Origin: Acidimicrobiia bacterium
GTDB taxonomy: Bacteria > Actinomycetota > Acidimicrobiia > Spongiisociales > ZC4RG35
Direction: 5' to 3'
DNA: 64,000 nucleotides
Assembly (NCBI GenBank): GCA_965215185.1
Contig: OZ244034.1
Span: forward strand, 768,001-832,000
The notes beneath the pieces are model-generated. The model was given only the letters and a program-made list of their open reading frames with translations. It had not been told where the DNA came from and did not search any database. The position numbers and the translations under genes were made by a program. Shown one piece after another: positions 21,294 to 22,484 of this stretch. How positions within the stretch are numbered: position 1 is the first letter of the stretch; the number at the start of each line of letters is the position of its first letter.

Positions 21294-22484
21294 GTGGGTA
21301 AGGTGAGGTTTGAGCGGGTGAAGCCGCATTTGAATGTGGGGACTATGGGTCATATTGATCATGGGAAGACGACGTTGACGGCTGCGATTACGCGGGTGTT
21401 GTCTGAGCGGGTTGGTGGGAGGAATGTGTTTACTGGGTTTGATGATATTGATCGTGCTCCTGAGGAGCGTGAGCGTGGTATTACGATTCAGATTGCGCAT
21501 GTTGAGTATGAGACTGTGTTGCGTCATTATGCGCATGTGGATATGCCGGGGCATGCGGATTATATTAAGAATATGATTACGGGGGCGGCTCAGGTGGATG
21601 GGGCGGTGTTGGTGGTTTCGGCTGTGGATGGTCCGATGCCGCAGACGCGTGAGCATGTGTTGTTGGCGCGGCAGGTGGGTGTGCCGCGGATTGTGGTGTT
21701 TTTGAATAAGTGTGATTTGGTGGATGATGAGGAGTTGTTGGATTTGGTGGAGTTGGAGGTTCGGGATTTGTTGACGGAGTATGAGTTTCCGGGTGATGAT
21801 GTTCCGGTGGTGAGGGGTTCTGCTTTGCGGGCGTTGGAGGGTGATGTTGTGGCTGGTGATGGTGTGATGGAGTTGATGGGTGTGGTGGATGAGTATGTGG
21901 ATATTCCGGTTCGGGATATGGAGCGTCCGTTTTTGATGCCGATTGAGGATGTGTTTTCGATTACTGGTCGGGGGACGGTGGTGACTGGTCGTGTGGAGCA
22001 GGGGGTGTTGAAGGTTGGTTCGGCTGTTGAGGTGGTGGGGTTGCGTGAGACGCGTGGTTCGGTGGCGACTGGTGTTGAGATGTTTAGGAAGTTGTTGGAT
22101 GAGGGTCGGGCTGGTGATAATGTGGGTGTGTTGTTGCGGGGGGTGGGTAAGAGTGAGGTGGAGCGTGGTCAGGTGTTGGCTGCTCCGGGTTCGATTTTGC
22201 CGCATGTGGGGTTTGAGGCGCAGGTGTATGTGTTGACTAAGGAGGAGGGGGGGCGGCATAATCCGTTTTTTTCGGGTTATCGTCCTCAGTTTTATTTTCG
22301 TACGACTGATGTGACGGGTTCGGTGGTGTTGCCGGGTGGTGTGCAGATGGTGATGCCGGGTGATAATGTGGAGTTGTCGGTGGAGTTGATTGCTCCGATT
22401 GCGATGACGGTGGGGTTGGATTTCGCGATTCGTGAGGGTGGTCGGACTGTGGGGGCGGGTCGGGTCACCAAAATCACCAAATAA
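21294..22484 (+). CDS. tuf: Elongation factor Tu (extreme G/T codon bias)
   Basis: [66 protein letters not shown]. Confidence 0.98.

Follow-up and report, generated by a model that had tools for sequence, protein, structure and literature searches.

The 64,000-nucleotide stretch examined here (the window; positions 768,001–832,000 of contig OZ244034.1, assembly GCA_965215185.1) comes from an Acidimicrobiia bacterium whose genome, G000, is a single contig (C1) of 3.12 Mb. It carries a gene for elongation factor Tu, tuf, in which nearly every codon ends in G or T. As the initial annotation of the window had noted, the setting is tufB-like, with the order tRNA-Tyr/Thr/Met, tuf, rpmG; ARAGORN and Pfam both bear this out (Table 1). 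All three EF-Tu domains were found by Pfam (GTP_EFTU, D2, and D3, with 205.7, 65.2, and 123.4 bits), which identifies the product as a member of the family. The start was set at GTG 21294, in line with its alignment to the N-terminus of the Escherichia coli protein; the alternative is the in-frame TTG at 21288.

Table 1. Features at the tuf locus, in window coordinates
Feature	Position	Strand	Remarks	Basis
tRNA-Tyr	20958-21041	+	tufB-like context 5' of tuf	ARAGORN
tRNA-Thr	21067-21141	+	tufB-like context 5' of tuf	ARAGORN
tRNA-Met	21172-21246	+	tufB-like context 5' of tuf	ARAGORN
Antisense ORF (open reading frame), 725 aa	21243-23420	-	over tuf and rpmG; not a gene, by-product of skew	
Tract of 1229 bases	21269-22497	+	0 differences to str-operon tuf	ungapped comparison and self-BLAST
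G-rich Shine-Dalgarno-like stretch	21276-21285	+	within identical tract, conserved in genus; G/T richness starts already here	
tuf (EF-Tu), 396 aa plus stop	21294-22484	+		Pfam and translation
Unbroken run of 376 G/T-ending codons	21294-22421	+		codon reading of tuf
Last seven tuf codons	22464-22484	+	all A/C-ending; bias stops	codon reading
Spacer tuf-rpmG	22485-22556	+	A/C-rich; sequence not conserved across genus	
rpmG (ribosomal protein L33)	22557-22748	+	codon usage normal	Pfam Ribosomal_L33

Read from GTG 21294, the frame comprises 397 codons including the stop, and their third positions are G in 229 cases, T in 160, C in five, and A in three. The first codon ending in A or C is number 377 (TTC at 22422). 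The run then resumes up to codon 390 (22463) and gives way to seven terminal codons: GTC (22464), ACC, AAA, ATC, ACC, AAA, and TAA (22482–22484). Leucine is encoded by TTG at 32 of 32 positions. Within the first 390 codons, 389 have the lowest A+C content that the encoded amino acid permits, and the A+C count of the gene is 326, close to the possible minimum of 319 (maximum, 735). The initial annotation had described the 376 G/T-ending codons, the constant use of TTG, and the TTC at 22422 exactly to the base, and had correctly placed the onset of the bias just 5' of the start codon. The start of its span (21294–22466) and the bias reported for it also hold. The end of the gene does not, as position 22466 marks the end of the bias and the stop codon lies farther downstream.

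The same annotation suspected a second copy in the str operon. Such a copy exists directly 3' of fusA, 36 kb upstream on the same strand and thus in direct orientation. The identical tract (genome positions 753288–754516 and 789269–790497) reaches from 19 bases before TTG 21288 to 13 bases past the stop codon, and the flanks are unrelated. It brackets the biased tract. In nine of 10 genus genomes compared, 11–15 bases 5' of TTG 21288 are common to both copies; the locus retrieved from the tenth has no sequence 5' of tuf. Moreover, in G002, G011, and G005 (labels of this form are ours for the genomes compared), the two copies differ solely in the last ∼7 codons, precisely where the bias ends in all species. 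Because the copies differ only there, the biased tract is the converted tract. Copies within a genome differ at 0–6 positions in 10 genomes of the genus, whereas the proteins of different species differ by 4%–7%. The pair therefore displays both signs of concerted evolution: greater likeness within a genome than between species, and identity confined to the gene. GC skew in G000 reaches its minimum next to dnaA (2,531,172) and its maximum at 1,111,828. These positions place both tuf copies on the leading strand, with the sense strand serving as the lagging-strand template.

The fraction of codons ending in G or T is called GT3 here. For G000 it is 0.497 (standard deviation 0.068; 99.9th percentile 0.71; 2723 non-overlapping ORFs). 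A genome-wide comparison of third positions, suggested by the initial annotation, ranks the two tuf ORFs first and second among all 13143 ORFs, at 0.98. The neighbors, which were named by eye from their translations (fusA also by tblastn), have values of 0.52 (fusA), 0.60 (rpsJ), 0.46 (groEL), and 0.46–0.60 (other ribosomal genes). The co-transcribed fusA ends only 18 bases 5' of the str-operon tuf copy. Leading and lagging strands of the genome differ merely by 0.526 versus 0.463. Translational codon bias would give ribosomal-protein genes, fusA, and groEL the codon preferences of tuf, and ordinary strand asymmetry would affect all co-oriented, co-transcribed genes by transitions only. The tuf gene shows neither pattern, which upholds the earlier judgment that translational selection or ordinary replication skew is insufficient. 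The skew is shared by the genus, as tuf in 11 other genus genomes has GT3 values of 0.975–0.992. Among co-occurring strains in sequencing run X1, tuf differs by an exchange between G and T at 48 of 73 differing places. By contrast, in about 60 genomes of other lineages the third-position composition of tuf is close to that of the adjacent fusA.

The substitutions have a distinctive pattern. Within the genus, four-fold degenerate sites vary by G–T exchange alone: 39 of 204 sites differ from G015, none of them to A or C. Relative to relatives with normal codon usage, the four-fold sites show 44–59 changes from C to G and 29–36 from C to T. The bias is limited to silent or tolerated positions, with the frame open and the three domains intact, and it extends to the protein. 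This EF-Tu has 38 unique residues, and at codon positions 1 and 2 G+T is raised by 32 of them and lowered by one. These two codon positions have a G+T fraction of 0.599 compared with 0.47–0.52 in normal relatives, and the branch to the genus in the tuf tree is long (0.46 substitutions per site).

The skew depends on copy state. Sequences of tuf were collected from well-assembled genomes of the class, with fusA as the internal control, giving a set of 65 rows. A GT3 of at least 0.60 is absent from all 15 single-copy genomes, whose tuf has the value of fusA. Among six rows from three genomes with divergent copies (89–173 differences) one reaches it, and among 44 genomes with near-identical copies 42 do. 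The initial annotation had proposed such a survey of one-copy and two-copy genomes, and its idea that a process acting on repeated DNA was responsible, although it named none, agrees with the outcome: skew is found only where the copies are near-identical, and it ends where their identity ends. The single-copy tuf of G279 (GT3 0.51) is the sister of a two-copy clade at 0.84–0.92. In G107, the copies are 173 differences apart and have GT3 values of 0.51 and 0.49. This genome groups with G047 (GT3 0.85; SH-like approximate likelihood ratio test [SH-aLRT] 98) within a family otherwise at 0.77–0.99, which by parsimony suggests that its tuf reverted after conversion stopped. A sign test on copy state covers five independent pairs, of which on average 4.3 are as predicted and none is opposite; it is underpowered (p 0.06–0.25).

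Several sequences were handled separately. Fragmentary or contig-end tuf matches were left out (the second hit of G001, and G010, G017, G027, G035, G039, G184, and G021), as were four genus genomes and many other metagenome-assembled genomes (MAGs) that had no tuf match. Copies more than 20 bases apart were kept separate from the counts (G107, G242, G188, G476, G565, G511, G381, and G347). Genomes that enter the tallies only are G234, G200, G601, G469, G637, G289, G332, G389, G429, G479, G305, G648, G574, G409, G342, G595, and G613. G021 forms a single row in the genus tuf comparison, and no claim hangs on it or on the tally-only genomes.

A mismatch repair enzyme offers a candidate cause. Actinobacteria lack MutS and MutL and use NucS, also called EndoMS (PMC7015689). 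The enzyme cleaves G/T, G/G, and T/T mismatches, but C/C, A/C, and A/A are affected little or not at all (PMC4838380). When oligonucleotides are annealed to the lagging-strand template in Mycobacterium smegmatis, dG-dG, dG-dT, and dT-dT mismatches are lost in a NucS-dependent manner within ∼5–6 bp, whereas dC-dC, dA-dA, dA-dC, and dT-dC escape removal and end up as mutations (PMC11551744). Furthermore, deletion of nucS in Haloferax volcanii causes a severe defect in gene conversion (PMC11276520). G000 encodes NucS at C1:349928–350287 (NucS_N, 86.2 bits; NucS_C, 125.3 bits). A search for MutS_V, which matched in 11 of 14 control genomes, found none in the single-contig G000; MutL was not part of that search.

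In the two exceptions among the 44 genomes of the class with near-identical copies, G040 and G024, NucS was not found by family or protein search. Before 24 of the genomes in the test below were scored, the prediction was set that near-identical copies in genomes without NucS would be unskewed. The test was phylum-wide and used two-copy genomes with copies differing by at most 20 bases; the measure was the GT3 of tuf minus that of fusA, the control. Where NucS was found, this difference lies between +0.19 and +0.48 in 35 of 36 genomes. Where it was not found, none of 24 genomes falls in that interval (range −0.18 to +0.16), and in 20 of these, codons ending in C are more frequent in tuf than in fusA. 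Five NucS-lacking genomes searched for MutS_V likewise gave no match. Single-copy genomes that carry NucS have no skew. Because neither these genomes nor two-copy genomes without NucS are skewed, near-identical copies and NucS both appear to be needed. E. coli, which has MutS and MutL and two tuf copies, served as a further control (tufA 0.51, fusA 0.53).

The best explanation for these observations is that the G/T-only tuf marks the end point reached by strand-asymmetric, keto-biased gene conversion, which would act between the copies through NucS. In this model, a minus-strand piece of one copy would pair with the exposed sense strand, the lagging-strand template, of the other copy. NucS would remove just the G/T, G/G, and T/T mismatches in a short patch, favoring the resident strand, and A/C, C/C, and A/A mismatches would escape it and be fixed at the next replication. 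A donor allele would then be accepted only when it places G or T on the sense strand. Alleles with A or C on that strand would be unable to spread and would be overwritten, exchanges between G and T would be neutral, and changes from C to G would be allowed. Repeated over a long time, such conversion could bring every free site to G or T and override the C-ending codons that tuf normally prefers, and the same drive could push tolerant amino acid positions toward G/T-rich codons. The observed alphabet of G and T, the neutral exchange between them, and the frequent change from C to G are exactly what the published mismatch spectrum of NucS predicts. We consider the full model probable, if only moderately so. 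That a conversion-linked drive of some kind lies behind the skew is very likely. The skew is best read as the product of a non-adaptive drive, not of adaptation in tuf, that has changed about 10% of the residues of EF-Tu. We infer the NucS step from two to three independent contrasts.

Some observations weigh against this explanation. The mismatch specificity of NucS was established in the archaeon T. kodakarensis and in M. smegmatis, not in the source organism, and polarity relative to replication was determined for G000 alone. NucS changes state three times on the fusA tree, and two of these changes fall on well-supported branches. The resulting two to three independent contrasts (p 0.5) do not allow a sign test to reach significance. 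With so few contrasts, another lineage trait could co-vary with NucS. The exception among the 36 genomes with NucS, G350, has eight differences between its copies and a GT3 difference of −0.07. Conversely, G285 reaches a GT3 of 0.81 and NucS was not found in it at a completeness of 72%. Two other genomes without NucS, G299 and G339, have differences of +0.16 and +0.13, although A rises there too. G400 has a weak, partial NucS_C match, and a failure to find NucS in MAGs is no proof of its absence. Within G000, several other long identical repeats have no skew, and the final ∼40 bases of the identical tuf tract are unbiased. In G350, a 6.2-Mb genome, the tuf copies lie 626 kb from each other and probably arose by recent duplication, because each of six sampled congeners has a single tuf match.

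The genus of G024 was considered as a clean case of NucS loss and rejected, with marker completeness of 72%–85%, frameshifted copies, and GT3 values of 0.54–0.81. In its members G284–G287 (loci L224–L232), the second tuf copies are broken by frameshifts or TGA; the assemblies consist of few contigs despite their low completeness. The broken copy of G284 has a higher GT3 (0.79–0.90) than the intact copy (0.66), which makes it look like a relic of stronger skew in the past.

Several other explanations must be considered. The bias could be linked to conversion and yet arise from a trait that co-varies with NucS, such as an error-prone polymerase in recombinational synthesis or another form of heteroduplex repair. 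In its favor, the evidence from copy state is independent of NucS, the NucS contrasts are few, G285 is skewed although NucS was not found in it, and G350 has NucS and no skew. However, the restriction to G and T, their neutral exchange, and the frequency of C-to-G changes fit the NucS spectrum, and the split between genomes with and without the enzyme followed the prediction. We are not aware of another enzyme whose blind spot is keto-specific, and we regard this possibility as unlikely, though it retains some weight. Selection on tuf mRNA or DNA for codons ending in G or U could also be imagined, as these might weaken folding, reduce C-dependent RNase or Rho sites, and avoid hairpins. The strictness of the bias and its conservation across the genus would suit selection, as would a predicted folding energy of −0.32 kcal/nt for tuf compared with −0.41 to −0.48 kcal/nt for tuf genes with normal codon usage. 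Folding was rejected as a discriminator, since the composition of skewed genes in itself entails a weaker fold, whichever hypothesis is true. Pairing between the 5' end and the A/C-rich 3' tail was considered from the sequence and dropped. Selection is made improbable by the lack of skew in every single-copy genome, in the three divergent-copy genomes of the same families, and in all 24 two-copy genomes without NucS, where tuf is mostly more C-ending than fusA. In addition, no other highly expressed gene has the bias, G107 has apparently reverted, the bias stops where copy identity stops, and it has changed conserved positions of the protein.

Deamination of C and A on an exposed sense strand, linked to transcription or replication of a very highly transcribed gene, would resemble the process on the heavy strand of vertebrate mitochondria. 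It has in its favor that the sense strand serves as the lagging-strand template and is also the non-template strand in transcription, and that the direction agrees with the genome-wide skew. This process would hardly spare fusA, which lies immediately upstream in the same operon with a normal GT3, or the normal single-copy tuf of sister lineages. Nor does deamination yield changes from C to G, which here are as common as those from C to T, and by our estimate reducing A and C to <1% would take an ∼100-fold strand asymmetry. We therefore judge it very improbable; pure hypermutation of C to T and A to G, whether by deamination or by editing, is ruled out by the frequency of C-to-G changes and by the normal fusA. 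For an artefact of assembly, polishing, or binning, no evidence was found: only synonymous or tolerated sites are changed, and frame and domains are preserved. The skew is seen in 11 other assemblies of the genus and, in graded form, in dozens of other genomes, and three DNA runs, each from a different study, yielded contigs that match tuf over 150–250 bases with zero differences. The skew is therefore not an assembly artefact, and this last explanation can for practical purposes be set aside.

The keto-biased conversion proposed here can be compared with known systems. GC-biased gene conversion is a non-adaptive transmission bias of heteroduplex repair that mimics selection and can override codon preference and fix amino acid changes; Lassalle et al. 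reportedly described it in bacteria in 2015. The process in tuf would likewise be a non-adaptive transmission bias in heteroduplex repair. Unlike GC-biased conversion, which favors G and C on both strands, it favors G and T on one strand and hence A and C on the complementary one: T replaces C, G replaces A, and the third-position G+C content is 0.59 in tuf compared with 0.70 in the adjacent fusA and mostly 0.62–0.77 in other neighbors. Repeat-induced point mutation (RIP) in fungi acts on duplicated DNA as well, changing C to T on both strands and destroying the copies. RIP-like mutagenesis was rejected for tuf because the change is confined to one strand, the frames are open and the copies functional and identical, and C-to-G transversions are as common as C-to-T changes, all of which fits biased gene conversion. 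In vertebrate mitochondrial DNA, one strand is rich in G+T, most strongly at silent sites, and this genome-wide skew is attributed to deamination of single-stranded DNA. The skew in tuf differs in that it affects one duplicated gene, is far more complete, and includes changes from C to G.

Concerted evolution of tufA and tufB by gene conversion is known from Proteobacteria and five other phyla, including Actinobacteria (PMC6053082). The present pair resembles those cases, as one copy follows fusA and the other follows tRNA genes, identity is confined to the gene, and the copies are near-identical within a genome. It is unlike them in that conversion is directional in base composition, and the available text of that study reports no codon or strand skew (PMC6053082). 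Repair by NucS/EndoMS matches the proposed process in its mismatch spectrum, in the strand annealed to the lagging-strand template, and in its short patch, and an anti-recombination role has been described for it (PMC4838380; PMC11551744; PMC7015689). The parts of these papers available to us concern replication errors and oligonucleotide editing and describe no evolutionary, strand-specific compositional drive in paralogues. A 2026 preprint on Mycobacterium tuberculosis reports an enrichment of T-to-C changes in paralogous regions and states that repair asymmetries might reshape their composition (PMC13061034). No description of a G/T-only tuf or of NucS-linked strand-biased conversion was found in the literature searched, to which supplements (Table S2 of PMC7015689, figures of PMC6053082) did not belong.

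Mobile-element genes of G000 have codons that mostly end in A or C (GT3 0.09–0.30), a mirror image of tuf, and none of them lies in the window; examples are found at C1:371338–371709, 1612708–1613175, and 3090999–3091352, all on the minus strand. They include transposases resembling those of IS110, IS3, IS30, and ISL3 and integrases, named by eye from their translations. Among ORFs of at least 150 aa with GT3 <0.33, 47 of 60 are on the lagging strand, compared with 46% of all ORFs. A leading-strand G+T fraction >0.60 occurs in 16.8% of repeats of at least 300 bases versus 1.9% of unique DNA, and a fraction <0.40 in 5.6% versus 0.3%. These skews may stem from the same drive as that of tuf, which would fit the data. 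Skew is not a property of all repeated DNA, which makes up 7.9% of the genome: the G+T fraction of many long repeats is near 0.50. A 5.3-kb repeat pair near the origin (L273 and L274; C1:2622458–2627823 and 2655393–2660738; G+T 0.51–0.52) had been considered as an rRNA test case and is not an rRNA operon, as Rfam gave no match to it. At C1:926400–926950 (+), and also at 929254–929565 and 939278–939798, a large gene encodes a protein rich in Val, Gly, and Asp; almost every codon in its 5' part ends in G or T, a preference that fades toward the 3' end. This gene is absent from the list of repeats at ≥80% identity, and paralogous domains nearby might be converting. A tandem array of GGTTGT- and GGGGGT-type units at C1:605200–605540 encodes, on its minus strand, the His/Asn-rich part of a 175-aa ORF.

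Spacers following tuf are A/C-rich and G/T-poor at both loci in every member of the genus, although their sequence is not conserved; they could be a C-rich Rho entry site or the leader of the following gene. In RNA run X15, contigs of a relative with 90%–95% identity cover 21171–22490 and none extends further, but contigs cannot show transcription or its ends. The 725-aa antisense ORF exists because the skew of tuf strips stop codons from the opposite strand. It ousted tuf from a greedy set of non-overlapping ORFs, and a length-based gene caller would prefer it as well.

Biased gene conversion has so far meant a GC-favoring and strand-symmetric process. The tuf genes of this genus point to a second kind, which sets keto against amino bases on one strand and is traceable to a published blind spot of a repair enzyme. 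It is conceivable, and we propose this only tentatively, that the blindness of NucS is an unrecognized strand-asymmetric force on all concertedly evolving sequence families in NucS-bearing Actinomycetota, and perhaps in Archaea, with its direction set by the replication fork; in tuf of this genus it would have run to completion, overriding translational selection and altering roughly one residue in ten of the protein that is most abundant in the cell. The same force may be the reason for the A/C-ending, mostly lagging-strand insertion-sequence and integrase genes of G000. A practical consequence is that the skew lets gene callers pick a false antisense ORF. If the proposed model is true, then the specificity of a repair enzyme can shape codon usage, and even the sequence of a protein, in opposition to selection, and codon bias should be taken with caution as a sign of expression or adaptation. 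The value of tuf, a phylogenetic marker in wide use, would also be affected, through convergent amino acid changes and long branches. Finally, these genes would provide a natural, long-term read-out of the action of NucS on recombination intermediates.

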